Of a stretch of 64,000 bases of DNA, positions 1 to 49,234 are shown in pieces. Every line of letters begins with the position of its first letter. Position 1 is the first letter of the stretch. This DNA is from Amoebophrya sp. A120 (lineage: Eukaryota > Protista > Dinoflagellata). The DNA is taken from assembly GCA_905178155.1 (NCBI GenBank), contig CAJINV010000014.1, forward strand, positions 1,815,984-1,879,983, written 5' to 3'. A program made the translations under genes and the position numbers. The notes under the pieces are model-generated. The model did not search any database. It saw only the letters and a list, made by a program, of their open reading frames with translations, and was not told the origin of the DNA.

Positions 1-1190
1 ATTTGGAGAAGCAGTAGCAGCCCCTGTCCCTGAGTTATTTGCAGCTTTATTTGACACGCCACCACCCGCCTTCTTGACGCCTTTAACATTCGAGCTGTTT
101 TTATTTCCTCCTCCTGCACTACTACCACTTTTCCCCCCGCCACTAGAAGTCGCACCGGTATTCGTCAAGGCAGAGAACACCATCGTTGCAGCGGCTTTGA
201 GTTTCGCCTTTGCGCCTTTGGCGTTCGCAAGTGTAGCCCCAGTTGTTCCATCTTTGTCGCCCGTGGCCTGTTTGCTTTTCATCCCTTCCGCCTCGATCTC
301 CAGATTGCGGTCGATCCGGACCTCCATCAGGATGCCTTTGTAGTCGGTGTGGGAGGGTATGATGTTGCGGGTGGAGAGCGGGTCGTCGAGACACTCGCAG
401 CACTGCACTTGAAATTTTTTTTCCGATAATTCCTCGTCGTTCATGATTTCCACCGCCTCCTCGCTGTACCAGCCCGAGAACACCCTTCGCGGGAAGACGC
501 GCAGATTCGGGTCCAGCACCCGCTTCACCTTGCGGATTATGCAATGCAAATTTATAATTCCCGCTTATGGAGGACACACAAAGACATCAACTTGTCATGC
601 AGAATTGGCTTGGAAGGTAAGTTCCGTCATGCAGACGCCGTGTTTGTATTTGTACTATGTAGTTGTTCTTGTAAGGGAATATCACTACATTTCCTGTGGA
701 TACGGATCCGCAACAGTACATCGGCCGCGCTCTTCACTTTACGAGAAAAGTTCATGAGCTTGCCCATGGTGCCGATCGTGCTGCTGGTCGTACTCGACGG
801 GCGCGACCCCGCCCCGCGCGTGCTGGGCCGAGACTTCGCGGCATTCTCGTAGTCGAAGAACGCCCCTTTGGTGTGGATGTCGGTGAAGACCGCTTGCGTG
901 TTGTCCGGCGTTTTTCGCAGCTGCTTCAAGCAGGCACGGACGTGCTTCAGCTGGCTCACCGTCTGATCGGCGTACGGGACCCGCATCCGGCTGCCGGTGC
1001 CATACCGCAGGATTTTCTCGTACAAGTCGTCCTCGAGCTTCTGCTCAAATTTCTCGTAAAATCGCAGGGTCCCAAACTCGTACAGTGGGGGTTTGCGCTG
1101 GGGCGGTGGCAGTTGCGGTGGCGGCTGCGGGCTGGGGGAAGCCGAAGCGCCATTTTCGAAGGAAACCGGCAGCGGCACCTCCTCCGACAT
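1..1190 (-). CDS. 5' part of an unknown large protein; paralog of the 5736-18007 gene; runs off the window
   Basis: ATG at 1190 (MSEEVPLPVSFE...). Near-identical to about 16540-18007. Removing 538-702 plus one TSD joins ...LLRIR|KVKRVLDPN. Confidence 0.75.
538..702. mobile_element. TAT...ATA introner-like insert, shared with the paralog
   Basis: TSD CGGAT at 533-537 and 703-707; ends TATGCAATGCAAA / TTTCCTGTGGATA; same insert at 17076-17238. Confidence 0.85.
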
Positions 1191-1967: not shown

Positions 1968-4900
1968 TTAATCTTCTACATGTACATGTGGAATCAAACT
2001 CCGCAAACTTAATCCATCGGAAACCCCAAACTGCCCCTCCTTGCTTCGGCTATCGGGCTGCAGACCCGGCGCCAAGCCTCCGTGGAAGCCGTTCCTCACT
2101 TTCTCGGCCCGCTCCCCGCCTGCTTGCACCAATGCTTCGAGTTCTAACTTTTGGTGATGTGCTATTTCCACGTCCGTCAATTTACTTGTGCCATCTTTGT
2201 GGTCGTGGCCTTCCTCCGTCTCCTGCCTCTGATCGTTTTTTCTCTCCAAGCCCTCCGCTGGTGCCCCCCTTGCTCGATTGTTGTAATCGGCGAACTTCTG
2301 ATCCATTTTCTCCGCCCCGTTTTGCAAACCAAGCATCACGTCGGCCAGAGGTGTTCCGTTCTTCAATTTTTCTCCTCTGAGGCCCGGGTGGTCCTGCAGT
2401 ATTCTTTCTACTTCCTCTGCGTGTTCCGTGTCTGGCCGTCTCGCAACCACCTGCAACGGGTTTAGTTTGGGCGCATCCTGCTTCATCTGCTGCTGGTGCT
2501 CAGCAGTGCTGCTCTTGTCCATCAGCTCCGCTCGACTCGCCGACGCTTCCGCGTTCTCCTTTTCTTTCATTGTGCTCCTGGTCACCCCCGACTCAGAAGC
2601 GGAAGCGAGCGAATTCAAATTCGTCTCCTTCCTAGTTTCGAAGAAAGACGCGGCTGCGGCGGCAGCTTGTTCCGCCGCTAACTTGCGCGCTGCCAGTTCC
2701 TGCATTCTTTTCGTGCCACGGAGACGGTACCTGTAGTTGGTCGGTGATGCTTATTAGAGGTACTTTTTATGAGCAGTATTAGGCCATCTTCTCATTGGCA
2801 TTGCGCCCTACGTAATACTCGTCTTGTATGTAATGTTCTCGAAGAGTATCACGGAGTACGATTACGACAAATATGCACCTTTTCGGCTCCGGATTGTCAT
2901 CCCCCCGCCCCGAGAGACCTCCTGTACCTCCGGTCTCGGCAATAGCGTCGCTGTCTCCATTCGCGTCGACTTTTGCCGCATCAAAAGCATTGTTGCCGGT
3001 GTTCTGCAAAGCGTCCGCGAAGCAGTTATGCCAGTTCAACAAAGGCACGCAGATAAGTGCAAATTTGGAAAAGTGGGCGTAGTTCTTGCAGCTCGCGTAG
3101 CTAGAAGAAGCGCGTCCTTCTCGAGCTCTACTGTTGATTGGTGAAAACCGTGCGAGTAGGACCATGTCTTGTGTTTGGCTTGCTGTCCTCGACACAATTG
3201 CAAACCCAGTCGCGATCGCTAGAAAGAAACTTGAATAAAACCGTTGCAAACCTAAAATTCCACTAACTTTAGCTTCATCATTTGCCATTTGTAAATTTGC
3301 TGTGCACAATCTGCCAATTTGTGGACGAACTACAGGACTTTTCTACCGATCACACATGAGGACAACTCTAACCCTTCGCTCCCAACAACAGCGAATACTC
3401 CTAGTAAGTATTCCGATGTCTGCCTTCTTTCGACGACCATTCTCTCTGCGATTTTTTTTAATCTTGTTCCACCCGCCATATCTGTTGCGGTGAAGTCAAC
3501 ACCAACTCCACCGGTGTCCAACATCGGATCCTTGAGTAAGAGCCGCCGCATCCTCCAAACAGTCAAGTCCGCGGTAAGCTTTACCTTTATTTTTGAAAAT
3601 GATAAACTTGAACACTCTTTCGTGGTCGTTAGTAACCTCTTCGGCCTTGACATTTTTAGTAAGTGGATCTGCAACAAAAAGCACAAAGACAGTGGCCGCC
3701 ATCTGGTTCTTTCTTAGTAGCACGAAGACCAAGAAGATGCACACTAACTCCAGCTGGCAGAGAATAAAAAACCGATGACCTGAACCTGGTCCACAGTCAT
3801 CGTGGCGCCCAAGTCCACTTGAAACCAGGGGCACTTCTGTCCCACGCCACCATTAGTATCATCGGCAGTTGCAGCCGTATGATCTCCGGTGTGTGCGAGC
3901 GTGTCGATTTTGCCGTCGATCAAGTTGGCGGCTGGTGATGTGCATGCATAGCTACAAGTGTATCATACTAGTGTATGCGCATCGCATGACAGCTAATTTT
4001 TCTAACAGGAAAACTGGATTAGGATTTTGCCATGCTGGTTTTCCATACGAACCAGGAAGAGAGTCATGGTGCATACCTACAGTTACGTATCGTTTTCTTT
4101 ATTTTCACTACGAGTACGATACTTTCGCAGAGGATATTAGGCCTCTATGCTCGCTAGATGCGGTGACCGCTTTGACATTCAAATCTTCACCAGCGGTTTT
4201 TATGTTGGATCCAGCAATTGCGATTGTCTTCGACCGGGCTCTGCTGGATCTCCGCGCGTCCCGGAGGACCCCCTGCGCAGCGCTCACGACACCAGCTCGT
4301 TCCCGCTGCAGCCCTTCTGTGTATCTTCTGTTTGGTTCGCCGCCAGTTCTTTCTGCAGGACCCGAGCCACCACGGCCATTGTAGGGAGCCATAGAAGATC
4401 TTGATCTTGTGCTATTTGTGTTTCCTGACGTCCGTGGGCTCCTACCCGGAGAACTGTTTGCCGATTGTACTAGTTCGGCGCTCTTCAGCTTCGCCTTCGC
4501 TGCCGGATGTGACATCATGCCTGTTGCGGGACCGGCGCTGTCACTCAAGGAAGCGGCTGGCGCGGCGTTGCCAGTGCGACGGTTTCTTCTTTCGGCCATC
4601 CGCGGCCGGTTCTGGCCGCCGGTGCTGTCGTCGTGTGCCGCACTGGACACTACAGCCTCGCCCCGGCCATTCGCCTCCAGTAGGTACTGGGCGGAATTGT
4701 AGCTCGCGGCCTCCTCCATCTTGGTCTTGTAGCGCTCCACCACGGGGGACGACACCGGTCTGCTCGCGCTGCTCGGCTCCTGCGCGGGTAGTTCTTGTTC
4801 CTTCTCCTGACGCAATCGCCTCGTCGCCGGCGTCGACCAGGAGGTTTCGTGTTTTTTCCCGGAGTCCTCCGCTTCCCAGACGGCAATTTTGTCCCCAGAG

Positions 4901-5103
4901 TGTATTCGTGTGTGGTCCTGCACATCGAGCCCCGCGACCCCGGCCGCGAGATGAAGAAGGACTACGAGATGAAAAACCACTAGTACTAGCGTAAGGGACG
5001 AGGTGCTGGAGTGAGAAGCGGTAAGACTCCTCGTTCTGCGGTCTGCAGAAAGCGGACTCACAGTGTGCTTCCGCAGGGGCCGTCCTGCAAGTATGGACGT
5101 CAT
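1968..5103 (-). CDS. multi-exon putative secreted/membrane protein with a possible discoidin (F5/8 type C)-like domain; exon borders approximate
   Basis: Hydrophobic N-terminal segment (LTLVLVVFHLVVLLHLAAGVAG). VTASSEH, then an exon at about 3785-3870 reading CPWFQVDLGATMTVDQVQ, which resembles the discoidin W-x-Q-V-D-L-G motif. ORFs 3330-3686, 2779-3309 and 1968-2705 are co-oriented. Confidence 0.4.
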
Positions 5104-5735
5104 CTTGTGTCTCCTTTTATTCTTCTTACGTAACAGTACGTTGCAAAACGACCTTCCAAGTCCAAGACACCAGCATGCAATAGTTATGCAGGTAGCGGTC
5201 AAACAAAAATTTAATTTTCTCCCACCTAGCTGTGCATTCATCATCTGCTCGAGTTGTGGTCATTGGTTTTCAACATTTTCCAATAGCTACAGCCAATAGC
5301 AGCTGTAGCAACGTAGAGCGAGTGGAAACAGTCCGCACGACACTCCATCACACACGACGCAGCACTCTTATCAAATCCATCAATTGATTCTCATTTTCTC
5401 GTAAAGCCTCCGCAGAGGTCGACGCGAGGGTACTGCCGCACCGCTCAATACTAAAAACAGGATCGAATGCGATAAACCAAAAGTCAACAGCACTAATCAC
5501 ACGAATACCTCAGAATAAAGAACAAGTGCTGTGTGGTGTTCGATCATATTTCAGCTTCGTCCGCCTGTCGCGTTTCTGGGTTCCCGTTTCAAAATTTCTG
5601 TTTCCGACGGTACTATCGAAGCTCAAGTTGCTCTTTGTGTCAGGTTTCTACTATTTCTTCGAAAGTACTACCTGGGTGACGAGATGCACACCTTTCGTTT
5701 GGCTCATTATCGGCGTCCTGAGGCCGGGATCCTCG

Positions 5736-8700
5736 TCATGTAAATCCCTGCTCATCAGTTTCTTCGAAACCAGTGTCCTCCTCCACGCCGAAGTATTCAT
5801 CGTAGAGTCTCTGCGCCACGTCGGAAAGCTTTTCGCACAACAGCCTCTCCCCCCACACCTCCAAAAACGCCTGCACAATCTGCAGAAACGGCTCCACGGT
5901 TACCACGGTACTAGAAGACGATTGTTTGTTGTTCACTGCGACAGCAGCTGTTGTGGTCATGGCAGAGAACAACGCGTCTGCGGTTGGTATGCATTGCAAA
6001 AGTATCGCACTCGTATATTATACGCATTACAAATTTCCCCAGCATGAGAAATGAAATTTGTAATGCGGATTTACCTTAACAAAAGGATTTGCAATGCATG
6101 ACTGCAATACGAGTGCGATACTTTTGCACAGGATAGTTGGGGGCGGTCTGCTATTTCGCATTGCAGAAACCAGTAAACTGTCAGCGAAGGAGGGAGATGA
6201 AGTAGCACCAGCTGCACCACTTCTAGAAGAAAAAGCATGAGATGAAACATCAGAGCTTCTAGTACCGAAAGAAGTGAAGCACGAAAAAGAGGCTTTGCTC
6301 ACTCGCTTTTCCCTTTCCTTCTTACTCTCCTTCCCGATCTGCAGGTCCGGAGTCCAGTCGTTGTCGAAATCCTTCCGGCTGTTTGACAAAAGTTCCGTCG
6401 AGATTTTTTTCCAGATCTTTTTCGAAACTTGAAACTGCTCGTCCAGAGGCTTTTGGTTTTCGTTTCGCTGGAGGAAATCCTGAATCGTCAACTTCAGCGG
6501 GTCGTGGAGACCCGTAGACTTGTAGTTTTGCAGAAAATTTTCCACCATGCTGGAGCTGCTCTTCGTAAAATTGATGGCTGATGTCGTTGCCCCGCTACCT
6601 CCCCCCGCGCCCGCAGCAGGACGGTCCCCTTGCTGCACTTTCCGAGAAGCCGCGCCGCGGTGCAAATCTCGCAAGATGCCGGAAGCGGAGGCACTGTTTC
6701 GGTTTGCATAATTTCCCCTCCGCGAAGATGAGGTGGAAGCCGAAGAGGTTCCAAAAATCGTGCTTTGAGAACGATTCCCACGCAACACTCCTGACGTACT
6801 CGCACTTCCACTGCGAAATTGTAATCTCGCTGTTGTTGAGCTTGTTGCCTTCGAAGAAAAAATCGCTGTTGCCGCGCCTGCGCCCGCACTTTCTCTTCGT
6901 CCCAGCAAAAACTGTCTCCTTTCCCTTTCCGCGGAAAATTCCTGCTCCGAGGCTGCTGCGGCAATGCGGAACAGGCTTAGCGCCTCGATCAACACGCGGC
7001 CTTTCAACCCCGAGGGCTCGTGGTAGGCGACGTCATCATTTTGATTGCCGCTTTTCGTTTCGTTCCTTCCATGTGGTATCCCGAAACCCGAGCGGCCCGT
7101 TGGACCGCACCGTTGGGGCTGGGTAAAGCGTACTGGGCCTATCTAACAAAACCGAGGCCCAGCACGCCTCACCACCACCTTGCCAAAAGGGCAAGACCCC
7201 TCAGAACCCCACCGCAGGTGGTTGAATGAGGGGAGACCCAGCCCCGCCCCCATTGCCCTCGGCAAGGCACAACGCGGACGCGAAGAGAGAATCCCCGCAA
7301 CGAGAGACGAGAAAGTACGGGACCGAACCAAAGAAAAAGTACCGGTGGGTAGTCGCGAACACGCCCCACTGAGTGGGATCCGAAAGCTGGCGTTGGCCAG
7401 AAAAGGAGCAAAGCAACCTTCCAAAGTTGGAGGAAATCCATGAAACAGAGTGGATATGCCATCGACAAGTACCTGCACACAAAATCCGCTCACATGTACA
7501 AAAACACTCCCAGGAAAGCCTGAAGTGCTCAAACTTGAGCAAGCAAATCCTCAGCCGGAATCGACTGGAGCAACTCGCAAGGGTCTTCCAGTGGTGTAGC
7601 CACTGTGGTCAGGAACCTCTGAATTTCGTCCGTCAAAGCTCCACAGGAGAGCAGCTGCACCCGGGCTACCCGACAAAACTGCGCCCACAAAGCGTCGCGG
7701 GTAGTTGCGTCCGCAACATTTTCCCCGGAGGGGAGCCACTCAAAGTACGGCACAATGGCAAAGCGGGCACACAAACTCCAAAATAACGCCGCGACCACCG
7801 ACAGGTGGGCGCGCTGCAAATGTGGAACGACTTCACCCCGTTGTAGTCCAAAACAGCCCGCGCAAGACTTTCCGCAGGCACATCTACCGAGGACAGAGAA
7901 TCAAGCGGGGAAGGCGCCCGCTGATGTGCTAATAATTCGGAGCGAGAGATCCCAAAGGCCTCGACGTCACTGTCACTGAAATCCTGCGCCACCTTTCTCT
8001 TCTTGACCGGCGGCGGACCCTTGCGGGCCGGGATCTCTTCTTCCCCTTCTTCCGCTAACAGGGCCGCACAAATTTCCTCTTCATCTACTTCCCGGGCCCC
8101 CAAGGCCGGAGCCTTCATCTTCGCGGCCGGTTTGGCTACGGCTTTCGCAGCTTTAGCCTTGTGGGGAGGCGCCTTCCCCTTAGGCTTGGCCGGGGCCTTA
8201 GCCTTAGCCGGGTGCTTCGCTTTCGCCTTCGCGGGCATGGTCTCTATCTCTAAGCAAGGTGCTAAGTGAGAAGCGTGTGAGTATACTGTGGAATTAGGCG
8301 GCAAGCTACACTTGCGCGCACCTAGAATGTCCCCTGTGAGAATGTCGAAGCAGATAAAAACAGGCAGCGTGTATGGTACCCGCGCCTAGTGGAAGGGGGG
8401 GAGGGGGATCTCATTTACCAGTAGCAAACTTTGCAGGGATTTCTAAACCGACCCCGATAGACCTAGAGCCCCAGCTCTCATCATGTCATCTCGTGCCAGC
8501 CCCTAGCTGGGGATCCTCTAGATTTCTGACCCAGTACCACGCATTTTCGTGGTAATAATTTGGATTTTTTCAGATGGTAGATTATTCCAACGCGAGTCTG
8601 AACATGATTTAGGTTGCAGTAGAATTGTCAAAGGTTCTGGCTGGGCCTCAACATATCGAGGAACTGAGGTAGGCGGGGGGCGGGGCCTTTCAACCCCGAG

Positions 8701-11700
8701 GGCTCGTGGTAGGCGACGTCATCATTTTGATTGCCGCTGTTAGAAGTCCGCTGGTCTTGCTGTTGACGGTCTCCAGTGCTGACGAACTGGTTCGGAAACG
8801 CGCCGCATTTATCGAGGGAAAAAAATTCGTGGTCGTGGGGGGACGCTGTGTAGAAAGACTGGCGAAACAGCAGTTGGGCGATGCTGTCGGGCTGTTTGTT
8901 GGCGACGAGATCCTCCATCGTGTGCTTTTCAACTTCCGGATACACCACAACGTGTTGCGTCGGCGACGTGTTGTGCAGAAAATGGTGGAGAAACGAATGT
9001 TCGGGCAAGTCCGGGCGGAAGGGGGAGCGCGAATCGGGTACAAGTCCTCGTCTCGTGGTCCGCTCGTGCTTGGCCTGATTGTTGCCCGGCGCAGCCGCGC
9101 GTTGTACCTCGGAAGAAGAAACTGTGCCGAAGTTGAAGGAATAGGCACCAGCTCCATGATCTGCGCTTTGCTGTGGGAAAGAGACCGGCTTCGCAAAGAG
9201 GTAACACCGCGTGTCGAACCGCTTGCGGCGATCCGTCAGGGTTTCCTCCGCGGCCGGCGCGGTGCTGGTCGTACTGTGGTCTCCGAACGTGCTACTAGCT
9301 CTGCTTTTCTCGTCGTCAACAGCTTTTTTCATTACAGGGGCTTTCGCCTTCTGCTCAACACCTACCTGCTCACCAGTTCCACCCACGACGACGTCAAAAT
9401 TCCCCGCTGATGTTATCTCTCTATCGTCTCCAGGAGATGACGTTGCTGCCCGAGCTTGCTCCTTCATCTTCTCCAAAAATTGTGGCAAATCTGCAGTGAA
9501 ATGCTCCATTTCCTCCGATCCAGGCACCGTGATCATGCTCAGAACCGGGTAGATGGCGTTGTAATTTTTCACTGGTTCATCTACTTTGGATGAAGTAAAC
9601 GCGGCGAACGCGGGAGCTACTTGTAGCTGATCCACCGACGACGACGTCGACGCAACTGCGTTACGACCTCCGAGTGCCGTGACAGTGTCGGGGTCAGCCT
9701 CAACATCTCCTGTTCCTCCAAATGAGCCTCCCACATCGGGGGCACTGAGATGAAACGTAGAAGTACCACGCGTCCTCCCGTCGACATCCTCGCTTTGGTG
9801 CTCGTCGTTCGTGAAAAAGATTACCGGTGCGTAGCTGTTGGCCAACCGCTTGTTTTTCCGCGCGATCAGCACGCTCACGTCAATGCCCTTCTTCACCTCT
9901 TCCCCCCGTTCGGCCAAAAACCTCTCAAAGTCCGCGCCCCGCCACACAAAATGCTTCCACGCTAACCGCCTCCGCGCGAACCACTTTAGCTTCTCAAACC
10001 GCGTCGCGACCGGGTCCTTGCTCCACTCCGGAATCCCCGTATCAAATGTAAAAATGTCTGGGTCTGGAAGAATTCATGTTTGTCATGCTTGTCTGGCGTG
10101 ACTCTTAAATCTGTCATGCACGTTACCTAAGAGCTCCGTTTTTTTGTGATGCAAAAGCGCAGTTTGTCATGCAGAATAGGCAACACCTAGGAGCTCAGAA
10201 ATTTGTCATGCTGCGCCAGCATTTGCAGCCTCATCATGAGACGCCACCCAGCATTACAAGTTTCCAGACCCAGACATTTTTACATTTGATACCCCGGCTG
10301 GGTCAGCAAATTTTGCCAGCACTTCCGCCAACAGGACCCGAGGTTGGATTTCGTATGGGAGTGTCAGCACTGAAATCGACAAAGTTGAAATAATTTGTAA
10401 TGCATAAAATCGATACCAGTTGGAAGCCCAATTTCCAAGCGGTGCATGACAAATTTCGGCACCGTCTAAATCCAGTCTGTCATGCTGTTTAGGGACAGAA
10501 GGCGTCTTTTGTCATGCTACTTTAGCAGCTCTACCGCAGACCCCAAGCATGCTCACGGTCGGCCTTGCTTGCCGCCCCTGCAAAAGAGGCACTTCATGCC
10601 TTGCAATTTGTGCATAAGAAATTCTTTCAACTTTGACGAGTTCAATCCTGACGCTTCCATATTTCGGGATGGGTCCGTAAAAGTTCTCTTCGTACTTCTG
10701 CCCAAAAGGCATTTTCGAGGTCGTGGCCCGGAAATACAGCTTGCATAACGTCTCGGAATGCAGGATTTCCTGCTGCTTGATGGGCTCAGGGTTGAAGATT
10801 TGCTGTGCTTTTTTTTCTTCTTCTTCCTCCTCTTCCTCCGCTGCTTGTAGTTGAGCTGCTCCTTCTTCGCGTCGCGCTGTGGACGAATCAGGTAACTGTT
10901 GCCCAACATCTTCTACATCCTCGCCGGTGGTGTTCGTGGACATGGTCTTCTCCTTTGCACCTGAGCCAGACGCGCTAGGGCTAGTACCGGGTTGACAATT
11001 AGTACGATAATTACCGGTGCCAGCAGTCGCACCAGTCTCACGTCTTTCCTTTTCCTCTTCCAGTGCGCGATTTTTTAAGAACAACACTTCTTCCGTTCTC
11101 CTATTCTCTTCCATTTCTTCGAACTTCTTCAAAATCTTCGGTTCCTCCGCCTTCAAATTGAAGGCCAGAATGTCCGCCGGGTTCGCCTTTTTCCCGCGCA
11201 TAAAGCTGTCCATGTCGGTATGGCGCTCTCAACTGTTACGCCCTCAACTGTTACATGATTTGCCATGCAAAATTGCCGTGACTAGCAACGCCGTCAAGCT
11301 GCTTCGCGTGACAAATGCTCAGACGGCCAAACAGGCTGAGAATCTGTGCTGCGAAATCTGTCACGCAAGACGCGCAAGGTCCTTCCTTTCACTTTTGCCA
11401 TTCTTGCGTTGCAAATTCATGCAACAGTTGAGAATGTAACATTTGAGAACGCCATAGTCGGAAAGGTGAGTGTGTTTGGAGAACGCGGACAGGCAAACCG
11501 TGATCGGCTTCAAATCCGATTTTCTCAACACTGGGAGCGATGGATAGGCTTTCGTGTTGTTGTTGGTTGGTGCTGCTGGGGGAATCGATGTAGTTCTTGC
11601 AATAGGTTGATCACCTCCACCTTGTTCAAACGAAACCACTTTGCTGGCCGTTTCTTGTGGTCCTGTGTTTGTCGTGCCGGCGGAGGTTGGTGGAGCGACG

Positions 11701-14700
11701 ACAACTAGACCGTCGTTGTTAACACCGTCACCCGCGGTCCTACTAGTTGCCCCTCCTTGTTCTGCCTCGGACGGGTTACTACTCTCGACGTCCCCCTCCG
11801 CAGCTGAAGAAGACGAGTCTTCTGTCGAGCTTCCATTTGCCGAGCTGCTACTTCCACCTGACGAGTCGCTGCTGCTCACATCAAACAAAACGTTCCGCAA
11901 ATTCTGGAAATCGTGCGGCATCTCCCGCAAATCTGTCTTTCCTAGCAAATATTCATGCCACTTTTCCTGGAAGAGCCGCGAGCTATGCAAGAAAAAAAGT
12001 GATGTAAGTGAAGTGTAACTTCTTTGTGTTGCATTCTTGCGCAGCGAAACACGAACTAACAGCTATCACCTGTCATGCTCGACAAGCATGCATCGTAGGC
12101 GAGTCTATCTGCGCATCACAAGTTTTTGCTGTCCACCCGGCAGATCGATATTTGTGTATGCTGTTTTCATCTTCACAAGAAAGTTCCACTAACACGACAG
12201 CCTTTTTCATCCTGGATACGAGTGTCGGTCTTCGTAGTCGGCATTCAAGTTCCTCACCCCATTCGGGTCAATGATCGCCAGGTATGAGAGTGCACAACTC
12301 CCCCTCGCCCTCATTTGTCACGCAAAACCCGAAATCTAAGTGCTTTCCTGTGGCACTGTTTGCATGACAGATTCCGGAAGCCCAAACAGTACTACACTAG
12401 GCGCGTGAATTTGTCATGCACAGGCTCCACGTGTGCTGGTGTTTGTATTTTTGCTGTTCATGCAATACAAATGAGGGGGGAGGGGGGGGCGGGAGTTGTG
12501 CACTCTCATACCAGGATCTGCAGCGCCTTTGGATCTTTCAGTTGGATCCACCACTTGCCTATCAAGTGCAAAAGCGTCTGGGTCTGGAAGAGTCATGCTG
12601 TTTTTGCATGACGCAGAAGGTCTGGCATGGAACCTATAGCATCACAGGTTTCGAGAGGCAGCTTCCGCAATGCCGAATCCGCATGACAAATGCCTCATTT
12701 TGGTGACAGAAAGTGGGTAGCTTTTGCTGCCTGTGCATGAGAGATTTTTATGTGTTGTGAAATGCGCCTAACAAGTTTGCATTCTTCCGGACCCAGACAT
12801 ATTTGCAATGCATATTGCCCTTGGTGCTGCTCTCCACGGACAGCAAGTTCGGAACGCCTTCGTTCGCCGCTTCGCGTTGGATGTCGCCCAGCGTCAACTT
12901 CTCGATTTGCTGCTTCAGCACATCCATATCCCACTTGTATTCCTTGCTGTACTATGAACTGCAAAAGTATCGCACTCGTATAAATGCATTTCTCAGCATA
13001 TGCGGATTTAGCTAAAACAAAAAGATTTGTAATGCATGACTGCAATACGAGTACGATACTTTTGCACAGGATATGTACCGCCGCTGCCACTGCATTCGCG
13101 TCCTCGCCTTGATCAGAAACTGAAAGTTCAACCGCAGCGAGGTGGAAGTGGTGAAAGTCAGTTTGTGGATTTTGTTCGGGTCCTCCGCGAGTTCTTCTGG
13201 GTCGATAGGGATCGGTGTCTTAATTGTCGTTTTCACAACTTGGATATGAGAGTACACAACTTGATGTTCACCCCGACAACTCAAACTCCGTCACTTGCAT
13301 GGTCTCTAGTAAAGTAATAGATGCAATAAAAGCGCCGTGGCGACGTAGCTTCAGCGGCACCACTGGTCCTAGAAATCGTAAATGCGAACAATTCCAGGTC
13401 CACATCCAGAAGAGAAAGATTGAGAATGATCAAGTCGGTATCTTGCATGACAAATCGCGGGAAAAAGTGAAAAGAAAGATTGTGCACTCTCGTATTGGAT
13501 CCGCACGTCGCCAAGAATTTCCATCACCCCGTCATTCCGGACGATTTTGTCGGGCTCCTGTGGCGGGTCTTCTTCGGTCTGGTTGTCGACGTTGTTGTAG
13601 GCAACTTCATCATGATTGACATCGTCTTCCCCCTCGCCAAAACCGACCGGCGCTTCGCTCACGCCGGGTTTGATCGTCACCGTTTCTGGCTCGATTGTGT
13701 AGTACGAGTTTTCATCCAGGAACCGGTGTCCGGGAAGCGGCACCTCCTGGATGTCCACGTCCGCCAGCATTTCCGCCTTTTTCGCCTCCAAAACGAACAA
13801 TTTCTCCCGCACCTTCTGAAGCCCGGCGCGGTAGGGTTTCAGCGGATTGGTTTTGTTTTTCATCACCCCCATATTGGCCATCACACCCAGCGCCTGCATC
13901 TTCTTCGCCATCCCGACAAAGTATGCGGAATACAAATCTAGCGCGCACGTAGACGGACGTTCTTGATGTACGAAATGCATACACAAATTTGCGCATATTA
14001 GTACCTGAAGAATCTTGAATTTCTTTCTTATGATGTGTTGTGCAATGAGAAGATCACAGGAGAAAGCGCTAGGGCAGAGCCCTGTTTATGCACGCGCGAC
14101 ATTTGCGAAACCCAAACCACCGACGCCGTGCCCAAGCGCAAGCCCATGCGCGCTAAATCATGATTTCTGTGCATAAAAACGTGACCTGCTTTTTCTCCTT
14201 TGGGTTTTCAACCTCAACGTCGTCAACATCCCCGACGTCCCCGAAGTAGCGCTTCCCGAACAATTTGCGCTCGAGCTTCTTCTCCTGGTCCCGCAACTTA
14301 CCCAGCGGCCCCTGCTCGAACTCGATCTCAATCTGGTACTTTTTCTGCTTCCGCTTGTGCGCAATGACCAGCGCGGCGAGGTCGGGTCCGCCGAGGAAGT
14401 AGTACTTCAAGTCCACCTTTGGTAACGCCGAGTAGGGATAGAGAAACTCGACAACCTCCTTCAATTCTTCTTCCGGATTATTTAGATGCGGGCTCGACGT
14501 TTTTTGCCCTTTTCGCTGCTCGGAAGTAGTACCAACAGTGATATTCCTTGCGGCCAGTGCTCGTCCACCCCGCTTCTGCTGTGCTTCCGCAGCTACAGGT
14601 TCGTTCACAGGTACCATTTTTTTCCGCAAGAGGGGTTGGATCCAGGAGAGCCGGGTGATTCTTCTTTCCGAGGTCAAGTAATCTTTGTCAAAGAGTCCGT

Positions 14701-17700
14701 ATTTCAAATCGAACAAATCCTCCTTCGCGCTCTCGAAGCGCTCCACGCTGCCAAATTCCGTCACAGTCTCCCGCTTTCGCGAGATCTCGCTCGAGAAAAG
14801 AAAGTAGTCGCTCTCCGACGCTTTCGGGAGCTTCGCCGTCTGCTTGTGTTTTTCGCGAAACCATTCCTGAAATCCCGTCCAGTCCGTGTGCAGCTTGGTC
14901 TCGTCTTTCTTGTGTTTGGAGGTCTTATTGTTTCCGCCGGCGGCGGTACTGGTTGCGGCAAGTTGATGGCCGCGGTCTTGAAGCTCAATGTGGTGCAAGT
15001 TGGACGGGGAGGAGATTTGGTCCGGACCTATAGCAAATTGCTGCTGCTGCACCACCGTACCGGTGGCAGCTGTCGAGAAAGAGACAACGGCGTCGGTACC
15101 AAATATAGCCGCCGGGGCGGAGGTAGTGAGGTCGTGGGCGTTTTCTTGCCGGCCGTCGCTTTGGCCGCGGCTGTGCTTTTCCTGGGTTCGCCATGCCGTC
15201 GCGAGTAACGTTAGGCCGCACGGTATGGTGGCCGCTTCATAAACGTCGCAAATTTTGGCAAATTCCCGATATTCCCTTCCGAAAGCCAGCCCCCATGCTA
15301 TGGGGCCGATCCGGGTGCCACGGGGGGCGCCCAAAAAGCGAAGGGAAATCGGGCCCGTAGCATGCGGGCTGGCTTTGCGCGTCTGGCGCGCTTTTGCTTT
15401 TTTGCGTTTTTATTTTTCGCGCCGGCGCTTTTTGCAAAGCTTCCCAGGCTCTGAAACAGGCGAAAACTCGGCCGCTTTCGCGGCCGCCCAAAATGCTCCG
15501 AAATCGCGGCCGTGCCGTGCTGTTTCGCTGTTCTGATTTTGGGCGCGTTTTTTTCGCGCCCCTTTTTGGGCGCCCCAAACCGCCAGAAACTAAGGCGGTG
15601 GGCGCCTCAGAAGGGCGCCCCTTTTGCCGGCTCCCCTGCGTCGTTTTACCCAGCGGCGATCGATAGAATCCGCTGGCGATTCGGTGCCGACACAGCCAAA
15701 GCCGCTTGATAATTGAAAATATTTTTTGTCAAAAAACGCTTCCGGCCGCTTGAAAACTGCCGGTCGTTTTTCAGGGTAGCTGTCAAAAAAACTCCCTGGT
15801 TAGAACCGTTCGGTGACCTCACTACATACTATGGGATCCCCCGGCGTCGCTCGCAGCTTTCCCGGTTGAACTCGCTGGTGCAATTTTGTTCGAAGGCGAG
15901 GAGGAAAGACTGGTGATTGGCATCGCCAACCCGGCCGAGTTGCCTCCAGATGTTGATGGACCGGCGCCAGAGGTCGTGCTATTTCCTCTCTTGTTGCCAC
16001 CTCCAGTGGGCGAAGTTTTGTTTTTTGCACTCGTCTGCCCTGAGGTGGACTTACCACTCGTCCCACGTCCTTGCTTGTTCTGCGCAGCAGAAGTCGGAGC
16101 CCGCCCACCTGCTGCGGAGCCTTGCACAGTCGCTCCGCCTCCCGTCACGTCTCCTTCGCCCGCCCCTGCTTGCTCCAGTGCGAGTTGCTTTTCCGCCTGT
16201 TTTCGCTTCCACACTTCCTCACACTGGTCGAAGTACCATTGGAAGCCCTTCTTGGCGTCGTCGTAAAAATCTTCGCGGAGCGTCCTCGGATCAAAGTACG
16301 TTTGCTCGTTCAGCTTGCCGCGGATCACCAGGTTTGTGTAAATCTCTCCGGTGTTCACTACTCGGACCAGGTCGGTGTCCCGTTTCGGCTCTTCTATCGG
16401 GAAGGGGGGGAGGAAAGCCGAACTCGAGGAAAACATCTTCTGCTGCTCTCCGCCTGGATGACGTTGACCTCCTGCTGTGTTTCTACTTGTGTTCGACGTC
16501 CCACCGCCCAGCGAAAGTTGCAGCTGTCTATTCGAGTTATTTGGAGAAGCACCCCCTGTCCCTGAGATATTTGCAGCTTTATTTGTTGCGCCACCACCCG
16601 CCTTCTTGCCGCCTTGTTTAACATTCGAGCTGTTCTTGTTGCCTCCCCCTGCACTACTACCACTCTTCCCTCCACCACTAGAAGTCGCGCTGGTATTCGT
16701 TAAGGCTGAGAACACCATCGTTGCAGCGGCTTTGAGTTTCGCCTTTGCGCCTTTAGCGTTCGCAAGTGTAGTGCCCGTTGTTCCATCTTTGTCACCCGTG
16801 CTGGTCTGTTTGCTTTTCATCCCTTCCGCCTCGATCTCCAGATTGCGGTCGATCCGGACCTCCATCAGGATGCCTTTGTAGTCGGTGTGGGAGGGGATGA
16901 TGTTGCGGGTGGAAAGGGGGTCGTCGAGACACTCGCAGCACTGCACCTGAAATTTTTTGTCGGACAATTCCTCGTCGTTCATGATCTCCACCGCCTCCTC
17001 GCTGTACCAGCCCGAGAACACCCTCCGCGGAAAGACGCGCAGATTAGGGTCCAGCACCCGCTTCACCTTGCGGATTATGCAATGCAAATTCCCGCTTATG
17101 GAGGACACACAAAGACATCAACTTGTCATGCAGAATTGGCTTGGAAGGTAAGTTAAAGTTCCGTCATGCAGACGCCGTGTTTGTATTTGTACTTGTAGTT
17201 GTTCTTGTAAGGGAATATCACTACATTTCCTGTGGATACGGATCCGCAACAGTACATCGGCCGCGCTCTTCACTTTGCGAGAAAAGTTCATGAGCTTGCC
17301 CATGGTGCCAATCGTGCTGCTGGTCGTACTTGAGGGGCGCGACCCCGCGCCGCGCGTGCTGGGCCGAGACTTCGCGGCATTCTCGTAGTCGAAGAACGCC
17401 CCTTTGGTGTGGATGTCGGTGAAGACTGCTTGCGTGTTGTCCGGCGTCTTTCGCAGCTGCTTCAAGCAGGCGCGGACGTGCTTCAGCTGGCTCACCGTCT
17501 GGTCGGCGTAGGGGACCCGCATCCGGCTGCCGGTTCCATACCGCAGGATTTTCTCGTACAAATCTATAGCTTGCTCAGATGCTACAATCTCAAACACAAA
17601 CGTTATAATAGAATCTGGAATTTGTGATGCAAAACGTGCAACCCCTGGCCTACTCCCACAGCAGTGCGCATGACGAGTTCGGCAGCCCCAAACGGCACTG

Positions 17701-18007
17701 AAATCCAGCGAAATTTGTATTGCGAAAAGGGCAGGTCTCTCTCTGGTACTCATGCTGCTCATGCAAGACAAATCCCACATTCTATTCTAACGTTTGAGAT
17801 TGTAACAGTAACACCTGAGCGGGTTATAAAATCGTCCTCGAGCTTCTGCTCGAACTTCTCGTAGAATCGCAGGGTCCCGAACTCGTACAGTGGGGGTTTC
17901 CGCGGGAGTTTGCGCTGGGGCGGTGGCAGTTGTTGCGGTGGCTGCGGGCTGGGGGAAGCCGAAGCGTCATTTTCGAAGGAAACCGGCAGCGGCACCTCCT
18001 CCGACAT
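5736..18007 (-). CDS. large unknown protein (~2,425 aa after removing 14 interruptions)
   Basis: Removing 12 TAT...ATA inserts (each plus 5 bp), one GT-AG intron (14005-14185) and the 7053-8683 insert (plus 55 bp) leaves 7,278 nt = 2,426 codons. Junctions read through, e.g. PPPT|ADAL, PIPK|SNLG, HLSD|MDSF, QRRY|SKEY, VRIQ|VVKT. No family recognised. Confidence 0.7.
5988..6135. mobile_element. introner family A (~150 bp)
   Basis: TSD GTTGG on both sides; TIR TATGCATTGCAAAAGTATCGCACTCGTAT / ATACGAGTGCGATACTTTTGCACAGGATA; excision restores frame. Confidence 0.92.
7053..8683 (-). mobile_element. internally deleted DIRS/VIPER-like (tyrosine-recombinase group) retroelement remnant in a 55-bp direct duplication
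   Basis: Identical 55-bp repeats at 6998-7052 and 8684-8738. A K/A/P-rich ORF (MPAKAKAK...) is joined out of frame to FWSLCARFAIVPYFEWLPSGENVADATTR (7529-7819), which matches the C-terminal retroelement RNase H motif W-x-P-S-x-x-N-x-A-D-x-x-[ST]-R. No RT or YR is visible. Confidence 0.65.
10040..10291. mobile_element. introner family B (~250 bp)
   Basis: TSD CCCCG; perfect 30-bp TIR TATCAAATGTAAAAATGTCTGGGTCTGGAA. Confidence 0.93.
10354..10661. mobile_element. introner family E (~310 bp)
   Basis: TSD TTTCG; ends TATGGGAGTGTCAG / CTGACGCTTCCATA; homologous to 38150-38460. Confidence 0.92.
11219..11456. mobile_element. introner family G/H
   Basis: TSD GTCGG; TIR TATGGCG(C/T)TCTCAA(C/A)TGTTAC, 19/21 match. 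Confidence 0.9.
11984..12218. mobile_element. introner, D-like ends, diverged
   Basis: TSD CGAGC/CGAGT; ends TATGCAAGAAAAAAAG / CTTTTTCATCCTGGATA; joins DRHS|RLFQEKW. Confidence 0.8.
12283..12510. mobile_element. introner family C
   Basis: TSD CCAGG; TIR TATGAGAGTGCACAACTCCC. Confidence 0.92.
12560..12814. mobile_element. introner family B
   Basis: TSD TTGCC; GTCTGGGTC(T/C)GGAAG TIR core. Confidence 0.9.
12953..13073. mobile_element. introner family A, internally shortened (121 bp)
   Basis: TSD TGTAC; family-A TIRs. Confidence 0.92.
13245..13494. mobile_element. introner family C, diverged
   Basis: TSD TTGGA; ends TATGAGAGTACACAA / TTGTGCACTCTCGTA. Confidence 0.85.
14005..14185 (-). other. 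canonical GT-AG intron
   Basis: CAG|GTCACG...TTCTTCAG|GTA; removing 181 nt joins KKQ|VLICANLCMHF in frame. Confidence 0.7.
15224..15828. mobile_element. 605-bp GC-rich TAT...ATA insert with weak TIR/TSD
   Basis: Starts TATGGTGG, ends CACTACATA; flanks CACGG/CTATG match poorly; removing 610 nt joins AGGSHS|GLTLLAT in frame. Confidence 0.6.
17076..17238. mobile_element. introner shared with the paralog (538-702)
   Basis: TSD CGGAT; sequence near-identical to 538-702. Confidence 0.85.
17565..17828. mobile_element. introner family G/H, absent from the paralog
   Basis: TSD AAATC at 17560-17564 and 17829-17833; the paralog has a single uninterrupted AAGTC at 1024-1028. Confidence 0.93.
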
Positions 18008-18597
18008 GATTACTTTCCTTTCCGCCCGAACAAGTAATCAAGGTTCTGGCTCTTCCCCTACGCTAGGAGGTGGTGACTGACGCTCCCGTGGCCGACACGA
18101 GGCCCCAACTCAACCTCAAAACAATAAAGCACGGCATCTGAGGACGATCATCAAAGAGCGCTAGCAGCAGACATTTTTCGTCCCATATCATCTTCACCAG
18201 ACAGCAAACATAATTGACAAGATTCTCGTTTTTTGTAAAATTATAACAGGACGACTAAGACAACACAAGCTTGAGATGAAGGACAGGATATTAAGCACAA
18301 AAATTTTATTGGGCAAAAATGTAACAAACATGGAGTAAAACTTGCGACGACGATGTACTTCTACGCGAAGCGAATGGATAGGAGCCACATGATTCCCCGA
18401 CCTTCATATTCTCAACATCACGACCGTTGTAGACGACCTGGATAAGATGAGCCACAATATGACAGACTATTGGCAGGATGCTCGCATCGATAGAAACTGT
18501 TGCTTTTTTACAGTTTTTCTGTTGCTTTTTTACAGTTTTTACTAGCTGAAGAACAACGACTACAACGATGATCACGATAGACACGATAATGGCAACG

Positions 18598-29614: not shown

Positions 29615-30900
29615 TCAATAATCATATCGTCTCCGCGGATCTAGTACGCTCGGTCTCGTTGGCGGAGTGAAGCTTATGTCCCGGATTGGCGGAGTGAAGC
29701 TTGGCGGAGTGAAGCTTGGCGGAGTGAAGCTTATGTCGGGTGAGCTCAAGAAGGAAAAACTTTTGTCCTCAAATTCGATCCTCCCGCGCTGGAAAACCTC
29801 GCCCGCATAGGAGTCTGTCACATCGACTATTGCAAGACAAAATTCCCCCTCCCCATACTCAAAAGAGGATTTGTGACGTGCGACCGTTTGTATGTTTATT
29901 TAAGTACACAAGTTCAAGTCCTCAGCTCTCTCTTCCATCAAGGGACCACTGAAGGCGCGTTTTATTTTCTAGGGCTGCTCAGGCTTCTAGAACGCCAGCA
30001 GCCCTTGCCCTTCAGCATGATAGACGCTTCTAGTTCTAGTGCTAGTGCTGTACTAGGTTAAGACGCATATACAGATTGGTTGTGCACCGCCACTGCTTCG
30101 TGTCGCTCTTGCTTGCCCAATATGCAAGAGACTTTGCATACACTTACACGAATAAGCATCACAAATCTCGTTTTTTGTGGATTTTCAACCTGGCGAGTGG
30201 GGATTTTTTCCCATGATATCGACTTTTGCTGCCAAATTCAATCGACCTGTGTAGTGCCTCCACGAAGTGTAGTTGCCCTGCCCCATATGAGGGTGCACAA
30301 CTCTCCCCTCGTCACCTCATTTGTCATGCCAAGCGCAAAAAATAGTGCCGTTTCCGTTTGTCATTTGACAACGTTCGCATGACAAGTTTCGGGAGCCCGA
30401 AGGAAACTAAAAAGAGCACATGATCGCGGCCCCACGACATATGGATGAGACACTCTATATGTGTATAATCTGATATGCAAATCAAGCTGCTGCAGCTGCA
30501 GCGGAGTTGGTATTGCTATTGCTAAGCAATAGCAATACCAACTCCGCTGCATGAACAGCAAGACAAGCAGCTTGTCTTGCGGTCCATGCAATACAAATGA
30601 GTGGGGGCGGGAGTTGTGCAATCTCATAGTCAGGGAAACGATGGAGGACAGTGATTTCCGTGCTAAGCACACACAGACTCCGATCCTCGGAATTGTGCAG
30701 CAACAGAAACTTAAGCGAAACTCTCGGCAGTCTAGGGACACTACTGCGGAGCCACGGTACTGTCTGCACACTGCTCATCGTGAGCTTGAGAATGTTCCAT
30801 TCTATGCAGAGGAAGTCTTTGTTGATTTTCTTGCGAAGTGGTGCTGCAGCTGATGGTCGCATTCCAAAAAAAAAAGGCTTTGCGTGGCTTCATCACCACA
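29615..30900 (-). CDS. probable multi-exon unknown gene; 5' extent uncertain, may continue to ~32.7 kb
   Basis: Short minus-strand exons separated by two TAT...ATA inserts; product not recognised. Confidence 0.35.
29661..29733. repeat. four copies of the 15-mer GGCGGAGTGAAGCTT (SFTPP repeats on the minus strand)
   Basis: Direct repeats visible; inside ORF 29615-29821. Confidence 0.85.
29828..30218. mobile_element. introner family F
   Basis: TSD TCGAC; AAAATTCCCCCTCCCCATACTC end homologous to 37780-38091. Confidence 0.85.
30286..30628. mobile_element. introner family C, expanded, TSD degenerate
   Basis: Ends TATGAGGGTGCACAACTC / GAGTTGTGCAATCTCATA. Confidence 0.75.
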
Positions 30901-35910: not shown

Positions 35911-38900
35911 CTACTTCAAATCATGTGCGTTGAGCCCGAAGCCTCCGGCGGTGCTCACCAGCGTCCCCGCCGGAGATTGTCCACCTCGACGGCCGCCTTC
36001 GCTGTGATGCGTGACGAGCTCCGCCGTTCCGCTCGCCTCAATCTTGAAAAACGGACTTTTCACGGCGAGTGGCGAAGTTGCCGGGAGATTGTAGGAAAAA
36101 AAGTCCTGGTGGTCGTGCTGCTCTTGGTAGTTGTTGCCAGAGAGAACTTCTTTGTCGGATGCTGTACTAGCTTCAGTTGTACTTGTACTCCTCGACGTTG
36201 ATGTTCCGACGTTGTCGTTGTCAGTACGACCACGACGTTGCTGGCCCTGGATTTGTTCCGTCACAATTTTCGTCGCACCGTTCCTTGTCCGTCCTCCTGT
36301 TCCACCTCCCACTGGAGTTGCGATGGGAATAACACCCGGAGTTGTACTAGGAGCTCTTGCAGGTCTACTTTTCTCCACGATGACCCTTGATAAAGAAGTG
36401 TCTTCTACTTTGCGAGAAATAATTCTTTGTCCTTTTTCCGCATTTTTTCCAGTTTTCATCATCCCACTACTTCTATTTTTCCCGTGGTCCACGTCCGCAA
36501 TCACCGTCGTATTGAACAGAACCTGCATCGGCAGGGCCCCCGGAAGCTGCTGAACCGACGCCGAGGCCTCGGGGCCGGGATCGCCTGAAGTAGGCGCTGC
36601 ATGACCTCCACCGGCGGGAGCTGCGTTACCTGTGGTCCTCGTCCACGTTTCCGCGCCGGAGGGCTGCACAGGCGTGGTCGTCGTAGCTCCTTTGTTTTGC
36701 ACCTCTATCCAGGAAGAAACACCCAGCACCCCCATCCAATGTATATATTTGTCATGCAAAACATGCATAACTTCCACTGTTTGTCATGCAAAAAATGGAT
36801 GGGGATTGGTGTTTTTTCCTGGATAACCACCTCGGACAACACATGACTCTTCGCCGGCGAGCCTTCATCTGCTGTATCCTGTGCAAAAGTATCGCACTCG
36901 TATTGCAATCATGCATTACAAATCCTTTTGCTGAGGTGAATGATCCGCATTACAAATTTTATTTCTCATGCTGAGGAAATTTGCACTGCATTTACACGAG
37001 TACGATACTTTTGCAGTTCATATGCTGAGGATGTTGTCGATGTTGTGCTGCTGTCTTTTGCATTTTTAGCAGTGGCCGGTGCAGCGACGCTTGTTCTTTC
37101 GTCGGAACTTTTCTGTTTTGTGTCATCACCTTGCTGCGGTTCCTCTTCTCGCTCCGTCTCTGGCAAGGTTGGAGCCATCTCATTACTAGAATTTTCGTCT
37201 TTATCACTGCTACTTTCGCCTGCTGCTGAGTCGCTCGATGCAGCTTGTTCTGCTACGCCTGCCGGGATGAGCTCCTTCTTCCACTGCGCCCCGTTTGCCC
37301 AGAAAATGGTCGCTTCAAGACCGCCGCTCGCTCCCGTTTGACTCGTGCTCAATTCGCCCTGCAATATGCTAGGTAAAGCCACCGACTTCTGGAGCGACTA
37401 GAGTACTAGTACTAGTAGTAGCACGACACGAGCAATAAGGGTATCCGTGTCTATCATCTCACGAAATTATGAGCTCCTTCCCCTGCACAATTATGTTGAG
37501 TTTGCAGCTCCAGCTATTTTCAATCTCCCGCATGCTCCTTTTTCATTTTTTACAAAGTTCTATATGCTTATGCATCTAATTGCGCATCTTTGTCATCATG
37601 ATGAAGACGGTGATTTATTTTTCAGATGTCATATCCAAAACCTGGTCGTGGAACTGCAGGGAGACGTGACTTCCGCAAATCACTCCATACCCCTGCCAAA
37701 TGTCTTCGTTTTTGGACACGGATTTCGCTTGCAGCGCGATCTGTCGGTTCTTCTCGCTTTCTCCGAGGCCGAGCGCTGCTATCAAAGTGAAAAATCCCCC
37801 CACCCCATACTCAAAATAGAAACTTGCGATGCAGATTTGTGGTCACAAATCAGCTTTGTCATGCTAGAAGGAAAAAGATGCGGACTGTAGTGCTGGTTGG
37901 CGTAGGAAAGCCTTGCATCTTCAGCATTACAGGGGGCAGCTGGAAGTGGGAAACAGCATGACAGATTGCCTGTAGACGAGGCCACAGCTGCGTCTCTTGG
38001 CCTTCTAGCATTACAAGTCGATTTGTGTACTCAAATACAGCATCACGCATTTCGTTTTCGATATGGGGAGGGGGGATTTTTCCTTTTGATAGCTGCCGCA
38101 GCGGACTTTTTCGACGTGATCCGGGTGTCCGAGTGCGCGACGTCAACCCTATGGAAGTGTCAGGATTGAAATCGTCAAAGTTGAAATAACTTGCGATGCA
38201 TAAAATCGATACCAGTTGGAAGCCCAATTTCCAAGCAGTGCATGACAAATTTCGGCATCGCCGGAATCCAGTTTGTAATGCTGTTTAGGGAAAGAAGGCG
38301 TCTTTTGTCATGCTACTTTAGCAGCTCTATTCCAAACCCGAAACAGGCTCACAAAAATCGGCCTCATTTGCAATCCCTGCAAGAGAGGCACTTCATGCCT
38401 TGCAATTTCTGCATGAGAAATTATTTCAACTTTGAGGATTTCAATCCTGACGCTTCCATAAACCCAGGTACCCACGTACTGGTCTTGGTACTTCGTGCAT
38501 CAAAGAAAAAAAACTGTGTTAGCGTAGGTCGTGTTCTTTACTTGGGGTAACAGCATCACAAATTTGTTCTGCATGTTGGCAGAGAAATCCTCATCCTGTC
38601 ATGCACGGCTAGGGCTGGCGCTGGCCTGACAAGTGTATCTGCGTTGCATGCTTTGCATTGTAGACTTACACTTCCACAGTTTTTCTTCTTTCATATCGTC
38701 GTCAAAAAGGCGATGCTATGCATTGCAAAAGTATCGTACTAGTATAAATGCATGACAAATTCCCTTAGCGTGAGAAATAAAATTTGTATATGCGGATTTA
38801 CCTGGAGAAAAAAATTTGTAATGCATGATTGCAATACGAGTACGATACTTTTGCACAGGATAGATGTCGTCGGTCTCCTTGTTTTCCAACCCGGGCTCGA

Positions 38901-48600: not shown

Positions 48601-49234
48601 TGGCTTTTTTTTCTGTGGATAACTCGGACCAATCCGTGTCCGAAGAGCCGGCTTCTGATCCGGATTCATCATCTGTTGCAATTTCTTCTGCATCATTTTC
48701 ATTCCCGCCCTCACTGAGCTCCTCAACGGAATCCTCGACATTCTCCTCCTCCTCCTCCTCTTCGTCCGAAGACACTTTCTCGGCTTTGTCTTCTCGTTCG
48801 AGCGCGTAGAACTTCTGCAGCTGGCGGTTGATCGGCTTATTTGAAGATTCCTTCATTTTCATCTTGCCGGCGCCCTGCGAAATAGACGAAGAAACCCCCC
48901 GGGACTTCTTATTTTTCCGGTCTCCTCCATTTACTTCGTTCACGACCTCCTTCTTCAAAGGCCGTCCGCGGCTGTCCACGGCCGCTTTGCCACCACTCCC
49001 ACCCTCGTTGAACTTTTCTTCGGTGAACATCTTGGCAAATCTCTGGTCCACCTTTACCTTCTTCACATCCTGGGGAGCTTGCTTGAACCGGGCCGCATGC
49101 AGGTTGAAGCGGTTGTCGCTGGACGATGAAGATGCAGCTGGCGCATTCTTTCCTCCTGCCACGACAGCTGCGGACGCCGTTTTCGCCACCGAAGCGGTGG
49201 CTTTGCTCATCTTCATCGACTTCTTATTTTTCAT
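45638..49234 (-). CDS. ESF1: pre-rRNA processing protein ESF1 (~950 aa, 3 introner introns)
   Basis: Motifs VKVDQRFAKMF, VDSRGRP, RLAFQTLDWDTVTAEDIF, EAQHGP, IRKYN|LRKLQYFFAVI and NUC153-like DDRFAKLFNDPEFGIDPT; spliced length 2,853 nt = 951 codons. Confidence 0.92.
46438..46822. mobile_element. introner family B carrying a nested insertion
   Basis: TSD TTCAT; family-B TIRs; 114 bp extra from the nested insertion plus its duplication. Confidence 0.92.
46651..46748. mobile_element. 98-bp nested insertion with a 16-bp TSD (possible truncated non-LTR retroelement end)
   Basis: GACATCAGGAGTCATG at 46635-46650 and 46749-46764; insert ends with two ACTCTGAGTGGA copies. Confidence 0.7.
47654..47887. 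mobile_element. introner family C
   Basis: TSD TTGTA; splits the conserved ESF1 motif IRKYN|LRKLQY. Confidence 0.92.
48512..48621. mobile_element. introner family D (110 bp)
   Basis: TSD ACTCG; joins DTDWSE|SEDSYD. Confidence 0.92.

Follow-up and report, generated by a model that had tools for sequence, protein, structure and literature searches.

Two tandem gene copies and their inserts

The 64,000-nucleotide stretch of Amoebophrya sp. A120 contig CAJINV010000014.1 analyzed here (the window) carries two tandem paralogous gene copies, A and B, which lie 16.8 kb apart from start to start. Copy B contains a 264-bp element, bounded by TAT and ATA, that is absent from the corresponding site of copy A, and a neighboring insert is present in both copies. 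Copy A is visible within the window at 1–1270, plus weak upstream likeness to ∼1845; within 1–1270, the comparison yields one private and one shared intron. Copy A 13–1028 aligns with copy B 16545–17564 at 93.5%, and 1024–1270 with 17829–18088 at 88.8%. Over 337 aligned codons, synonymous divergence (dS) is 0.216 and nonsynonymous divergence (dN) 0.016, with 45 of 240 synonymous sites differing (19%), and the upstream DNA of the two copies is 73–82% alike, with many insertions and deletions (indels). The features are as follows.

1..537, minus strand: inferred exon 2 of copy A, running off the window start; residues 1–148 of the protein P0001 match 444–1 at 100%.
533..707, no strand assigned: shared insert of copy A (538–702) with its CGGAT repeats, from the alignment.
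708..1190, minus strand: coding exon 1 of copy A, reading through the empty site, from the frame.
1024..1028, plus strand: empty site of copy A, a single AAGTC, from the alignment and an empty-form short-read contig.
15828..17075, minus strand: inferred exon 3 of copy B, from comparison of translations.
17071..17243, no strand assigned: shared TAT...ATA insert of copy B (17076–17238) with its CGGAT repeats, having weak inverted ends and no significant hairpin, from alignment and folding.
17244..17564, minus strand: inferred exon 2 of copy B, with 0 amino acid changes and 11 synonymous changes relative to copy A in 105 codons, from the codon alignment.
17560..17564, plus strand: first copy of the direct repeat AAATC, an inferred target-site duplication, from the sequence alignment.
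17565..17828, no strand assigned: 264-bp TAT...ATA element, in copy B only, with long imperfect terminal inverted repeats, a member of a dispersed family, from alignment, folding, and short-read pieces.
17829..17833, plus strand: second copy of the direct repeat AAATC, from the alignment.
17834..18007, minus strand: inferred coding exon 1 of copy B from its ATG, with a border anywhere within the 5-bp repeat, from the frame, which continues into exon 2.

A filled site in copy B and an empty site in copy A

The element at 17565–17828 is flanked by AAATC at 17560–17564 and again at 17829–17833, a direct repeat of exactly 5 bp with no extension on either side. At 1021–1035, copy A reads TAC-AAGTC-GTCCTCG, a single 5-bp site that aligns without an insert, and the net insert of copy B relative to copy A is 269 bp, comprising the element and one repeat. 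On the coding minus strand, AAGTC and AAATC give GAC and GAT, both Asp, such that the single difference between them is a synonymous third-position change. An earlier note on this DNA had described this filled and empty pair, and its coordinates prove exact; the repeat also behaves as that note proposed, like a target-site duplication, in its exact length and in being single in the paralog. The alignment likewise places the neighboring insert in both copies (538–702 and 17076–17238).

The element has a pair of inverted arms, 17558–17631 and 17762–17835, each of 74 nt and 74% complementary. It folds with a z score of −5.67, and none of 200 shuffled sequences (0/200) folds equally well. The element has no coding capacity, and the 64-kb window contains no other full-length relative of it.

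The element is one of a published class of A120 introners

The text of Farhat et al. (2021, PMC7789003) describes A120 introners with inverted repeats starting with TAT, direct repeats of 3–5 nt, and non-canonical borders, and puts the number of repeated introns at 29,850; its Figure S19, according to the legend, shows 5-bp direct repeats. The copy B element is found in the same organism and shares the TAT start, the inverted ends with a hairpin, a direct repeat within the 3–5 nt range, the non-canonical borders, and repetition in the genome as a family, and its 264 bp are close to the 240-nt mean that this text gives for A120 non-canonical introns. Its inverted repeat is longer, ∼74 nt as against motifs of 8–20 nt. 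The run of at least three A that follows TAT-N7 in the A120 motif of that text, a pattern given there at the level of families, is absent from the copy B element, which has TAT at both ends; the run is missing from other window elements as well and is found at both ends of the shared insert. The copy B element is one instance of this published class. The text of the paper and its supplement holds no comparison of filled and empty paralogs (“empty” does not occur; “paralog” occurs three times in the paper, none on introns, and not at all in the supplement), and in the freely searchable literature we found no paper on filled and empty sites in Amoebophrya paralogs.

We scanned the window for TAT...ATA stretches of 60–1200 bp flanked by an exact 5-bp direct repeat, taking ends as matching when at least 11 of 20 inverted terminal positions agreed. 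This returned 26 stretches, 22 of them also with matching ends, compared with 0–3 in each of 20 shuffles, and none of the stretches with matching ends has a repeat longer than 5 bp. Under looser criteria, one longer element was also recovered, together with three whose repeat copies differ at one position. Beyond the window, the dispersal of the family is visible in two short-read contig sets, X1 and X2, which derive from a single sample (possibly the source of the window itself) and were assembled separately; depth in them is a rough guide. The pieces matching 17001–17900 (373 in X1, 365 in X2) are concentrated on the element, with a few exon pieces included, and X1 depth over this interval reaches the thousands over the element only. 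By likeness, two of the 373 X1 pieces are at least 99% alike, 51 at 95–99%, 96 at 90–95%, and 224 lower; the two closest are presumed to be the contigs of this locus itself.

A gene elsewhere in the window illustrates how the class is annotated. The ESF1 gene (45641–49234), with its ESF1 RRM and NUC153 domains, contains three TAT...ATA elements, one of which splits the RRM domain. Removing all three, each with one repeat, yields a translation identical to A120 ESF1 (CAD7967948.1/GSA120T00021859001) at 950 of 950 residues, which indicates that the published annotation treats the class as introns. The AT5 ESF1 ortholog is collinear at all three element sites.

Outside Amoebophrya, the closest likeness is to introners resembling miniature inverted-repeat transposable elements (MITEs) in Micromonas, Aureococcus, Symbiodinium, and Polarella, which are likewise non-coding, with terminal inverted repeats (TIRs) and a target-site duplication (PMC9860276, PMC11282704, bioRxiv 10.1101/2020.10.14.339549). 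The copy B element has the features of a MITE, or non-autonomous TIR element: inverted ends, a duplication, no coding capacity, and many copies. As told in the text of these sources, splice sites derive partly from the duplication, removal usually preserves mRNA length, and filled and empty sites were compared earlier between Aureococcus isolates. The duplication is 5 nt in Polarella class 12, as in the copy B element, and 3 nt in Micromonas, 4 nt in Symbiodinium, and 8 nt in Aureococcus. Those families recruit GT/GC/GA...AG borders, whereas no register of the copy B element offers both, and the likeness described here is one of anatomy.

Duplications of 5 bp are typical of Ty1/Copia integrases. 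A120 introner family 38 is described in the text of PMC12130899 as a TIR element with Copia/Gypsy-like open reading frames (ORFs); it resides in the same genome and has ORFs, in contrast to the copy B element. By analogy, family 38 could possibly be the source of the mobilizing enzyme, and we offer it as a lead only.

Several other properties of the window's elements were observed. A TTGTCATGCA-like motif, whose pattern was derived from the same 23 elements in which it was counted, occurs 50 times in the 5.1 kb of elements (9.8 per kb), compared with 30 occurrences over the remaining 58.9 kb (0.5 per kb). It is present in 22 of the 23 TAT...ATA elements, which belong to dissimilar families, and is found on both strands, with some sites inside the terminal repeat. 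The motif is a candidate binding site for the mobilizing or splicing machinery; a branch-point role is not favored, the motif lying on both strands. A 1,284-bp TAT...ATA element at 42946–44229 has 20 of 20 matching end positions, a 5-bp repeat, internal repeats, and a palindrome, with no long ORF. A ∼150-bp family comprises eight copies, in both orientations and 9%–25% apart, at the following positions.

5988–6135
12953–13073
36875–37022
38717–38862
41047–41197
41252–41396
54030–54179
54858–55008

Probable removal of the element from the copy B transcript

Retention of the element in copy B would place a stop at codon 24, and removal of 269 nt, the element plus one repeat, restores a frame that matches copy A. 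Downstream of it, in the conserved exons, nonsynonymous differences between the two copies number 3 in 458 sites, as against 22 in 136 for synonymous ones. Had a copy been without function for as little as 0.035 substitutions per site, ∼16 nonsynonymous differences would be expected. Considered together, the retention stop and the scarcity of nonsynonymous changes indicate that copy B has probably not been dead for long. Purifying selection acts on the exons; some decay may be hidden by conversion from A. On the strength of this selection, and indirectly of the three sister elements absent from the annotated ESF1 protein, the element is likely to be spliced out together with one copy of the repeat.

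The borders of such an intron are not canonical U2 borders. None of the six possible cut registers gives GT (or GC)...AG; the best gives AT...AG, in which the AG combines the last A of the element with the first G of the repeat. RNA runs X5, X6, and X7 contain 0 reads on the exons, which says nothing on expression. In run X8, 36 pieces match, on the element only, and assembled X5 contains no matching pieces; the exons are uncovered in both. In X5, 91 reads match the window elsewhere, all on 31 bases (10041–10071) of another element and with flanks unlike the window; these represent a related element within some other transcript. X6 has one matching read and X7 none.

Gain, loss, and the reality of two loci

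The reading that we favor, with a probability of about 0.75, is that the element inserted into copy B after the duplication and that splicing likely removes it along with one repeat. A transposase or integrase provided in trans would make a 5-bp staggered cut, and fill-in would duplicate the site. The paired ends of the element would then juxtapose the exon borders, and the 269-nt unit would leave the transcript with the protein unchanged.

The main alternative is a precise loss, in which an ancestral element, inherited by both copies, disappeared cleanly from copy A. The element might have been deleted between its 5-bp repeats, excised and exactly repaired, or overwritten by conversion, with a spliced cDNA or an empty copy since lost as the template. 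We consider this loss unlikely. Such a loss must be exact and must spare the next intron: the intron missing from A is the 5′-most one, and the one 321 nt downstream is kept. Reverse-transcript-mediated intron loss is biased to the 3′ end, and this pattern therefore fits it poorly. In B, no difference has arisen between the two copies of the repeat, a weak point against loss. The text of PMC7789003 judges insertion the likelier source of such introns in A120 and describes the elements as strain-specific and proliferating. It holds gain and loss to be indistinguishable for orthologs. The exact repeat, the dispersed family, and the kept downstream intron support the earlier ranking of exact loss below gain.

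Several observations nevertheless weigh against gain in copy B, some of them favoring loss. Metagenome searches, protein searches, and short-read contigs provided no outgroup or third-paralog DNA that fixes the direction of change. Among the matches listed (8 per run), relatives of the element are 88–89% alike, and none reaches 99% or is otherwise near-identical; the longest differ from it at 26/211, 15/141, and 18/161 sites (11%–13%). Their likeness exceeds the 81% synonymous likeness of the paralogs, but not significantly (26/211 versus 45/240 sites, Fisher p = 0.07), and there may be closer relatives than those among the matches listed. The element departs from the majority letter of its family at at least 15–18 of 161 sites, a divergence of 9%–11%, similar to half of the paralog dS (that half being 10.8%). 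It lacks the AAA run that the text of PMC7789003 gives for A120 families, and the block shows signs of recombination between the copies, a conversion signal that makes dS an unreliable clock.

The insertion is not very young. The earlier note had proposed a recent gain, to be dated against synonymous divergence. Gain does remain likelier than loss, but “recent” was overstated and can mean at most after the duplication: only two of the 373 pieces reach 99%, and these are presumed to be the locus's own contigs. Dating does not set the insertion apart in time from the duplication (p = 0.07). Dating by arm-arm mismatch was rejected, since other window families have asymmetric ends common to their copies. 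Five metagenome loci considered as outgroups were also rejected; they match at 38% over 32 residues, a chance level, and the one translated (L001) is an unrelated, bacterial-looking enzyme.

A gain before the duplication is quite improbable. In this scheme, the insertion was polymorphic, and unequal crossing-over set filled and empty alleles in tandem. This would account for an element similar in age to the A/B split and for the tandem arrangement, 16.8 kb start to start. It requires alleles ∼20% apart at synonymous sites, or coincident timing, and we found no direct support for it.

The short-read contigs bear on whether A and B are separate loci. Contigs of X1 and X2 span both filled-form junctions with 0 differences, and the empty form is present in a short-read contig that joins 17561 to 17832 with one G between them. 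In X1, the filled-junction contigs have depths of 40.9 and 43.8 and the empty-form contig 34.9, close to the 40.8 and 41.7 of unique stretches nearby; the corresponding X2 depths are 22.3 and 25.2 (filled) and 20.3 (empty). A 2.3-kb contig (1163–3494) runs from the start of copy A into DNA without a counterpart at B. That A and B represent a single locus in two haplotypes or strains, wrongly assembled in tandem, is barely credible given these near-single-copy rather than half depths, a dS of 0.22, the divergent upstream DNA, and the contig leading away from A, even though X1 and X2 may share the window's source sample and so are not independent biology, and no piece among the matches listed covers the whole 16.8 kb. 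The paralogs are real, as the earlier note had assumed.

We saw no third copy, the short-read contigs containing only two exon types at 80% likeness. Across 3465–10064, contigs of 0.9–2.5 kb have ∼2–3 times the unique depth, with 0–4 differing letters. This depth may reflect near-identical extra copies, with a duplicated unit of ∼15 kb and conversion or a partial third copy; it fits patchy conversion or a younger duplication.

An unusually conserved shared insert

The neighboring insert differs from the private element in structure. Its ends match at 10 and 12 of 20 positions, folding gives a z score of −0.26 with no hairpin signal, and flat short-read depth reveals, apart from its twin, no relative with a likeness of at least 80%. 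It looks old, and is probably older than the private element. Between A and B, however, it shows 0 substitutions in 157 columns, where ∼30 are expected (versus 45/240 synonymous sites, p = 3e-11). The adjoining 5′ flank differs at 7 of 82 positions (insert versus flank, p = 5e-4), and DNA further upstream by 18%–23%. The two versions of the insert are distinguished by three indels, of 7, 6, and 1 bp, two of them at short repeats. At the 0.16 indels per substitution of another family (the eight ∼150-bp copies), three indels before any substitution have a chance of ∼0.003.

The identical tract around the insert spans at most 232 bp. Its exon flanks (62 bp) do not exceed the spacing found elsewhere between differences, and therefore do not prove a conversion tract. 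A short-read contig over the insert mixes A-type and B-type letters, with no substitution relative to either version, which argues against a polishing artifact; 39 bases are skipped in it as a repeat, and the state of B at the two larger indels is not separately seen. An Rfam search over 14900–18000 gave 0 matches, and hence no sign of a known RNA in the shared intron.

We weighed four explanations of this identity by judgment rather than computation. Conversion over an old shared intron is somewhat favored. That an introner was copied between the paralogs by break repair, into an empty site or after excision, is doubtful; constraint is a little less probable again, and an artifact less so still. 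Intron transfer between paralogs has been proposed for three events, on indirect evidence, in the text of Yenerall and Zhou (2012, PMC3443670). An intron copied by recombination into the sister paralog would be more alike than its surrounding exons, which makes transfer a candidate for the shared insert. If both copies already had the intron, ordinary conversion across it would account for the data equally well. From its presence in both copies, the earlier note had read that this intron predates the duplication. That order is plausible, but 0 differences in 157 columns imply that the intron was likely homogenized, transferred, or constrained, such that it dates nothing and fails as a clock.

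The gene and further features of the window

The A/B gene has no Pfam family and no usable Atlas match. Among proteins of 229–730 residues, the only homolog found is P0001, copy A's own annotated model, and a search of 1.84 billion representative proteins gave two matches, both to unrelated repetitive proteins. For an exon at 13372–14085, no homologous protein was found.

Copy B also contains a 730-bp insert (15098–15827) that splits a stretch contiguous in P0001. The insert contains stops in frame, its terminal inverted repeat is broken, and its direct repeat measures only 3 bp; related short-read pieces at 95% likeness or more match it at high depth. It is possibly a second, younger private insertion in B. 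We did not take P0001 to prove a second empty site, since the annotated model may itself be spliced. P0001 ends where the copy B frame (window ∼14705) continues for ∼180 more codons, possibly owing to an unspliced insert private to A or to a stop. Long near-perfect palindromes lie at 59188–59551 and 30497–30590.

Implications for introner spread in Amoebophrya

Strains A25 and A120 are too distant to show empty sites in DNA. Filled and empty pairs within A120 show that the 5-bp repeat was single until the element arrived, a constraint on what the mobilizing enzyme can be, and the paralog dS supplies a rough time scale. A single case adds little, and a genome-wide count over paralog pairs would show how often non-canonical introns are gained and lost. 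The near-identical shared intron is a warning that gene conversion has to be taken into account in any such count, and its odd conservation is the part worth following. If introners are copied between paralogs, the sharing of an intron position by paralogs would be no guide to intron age in this genome, and duplicated genes would constitute a second, transposase-independent route of introner spread.

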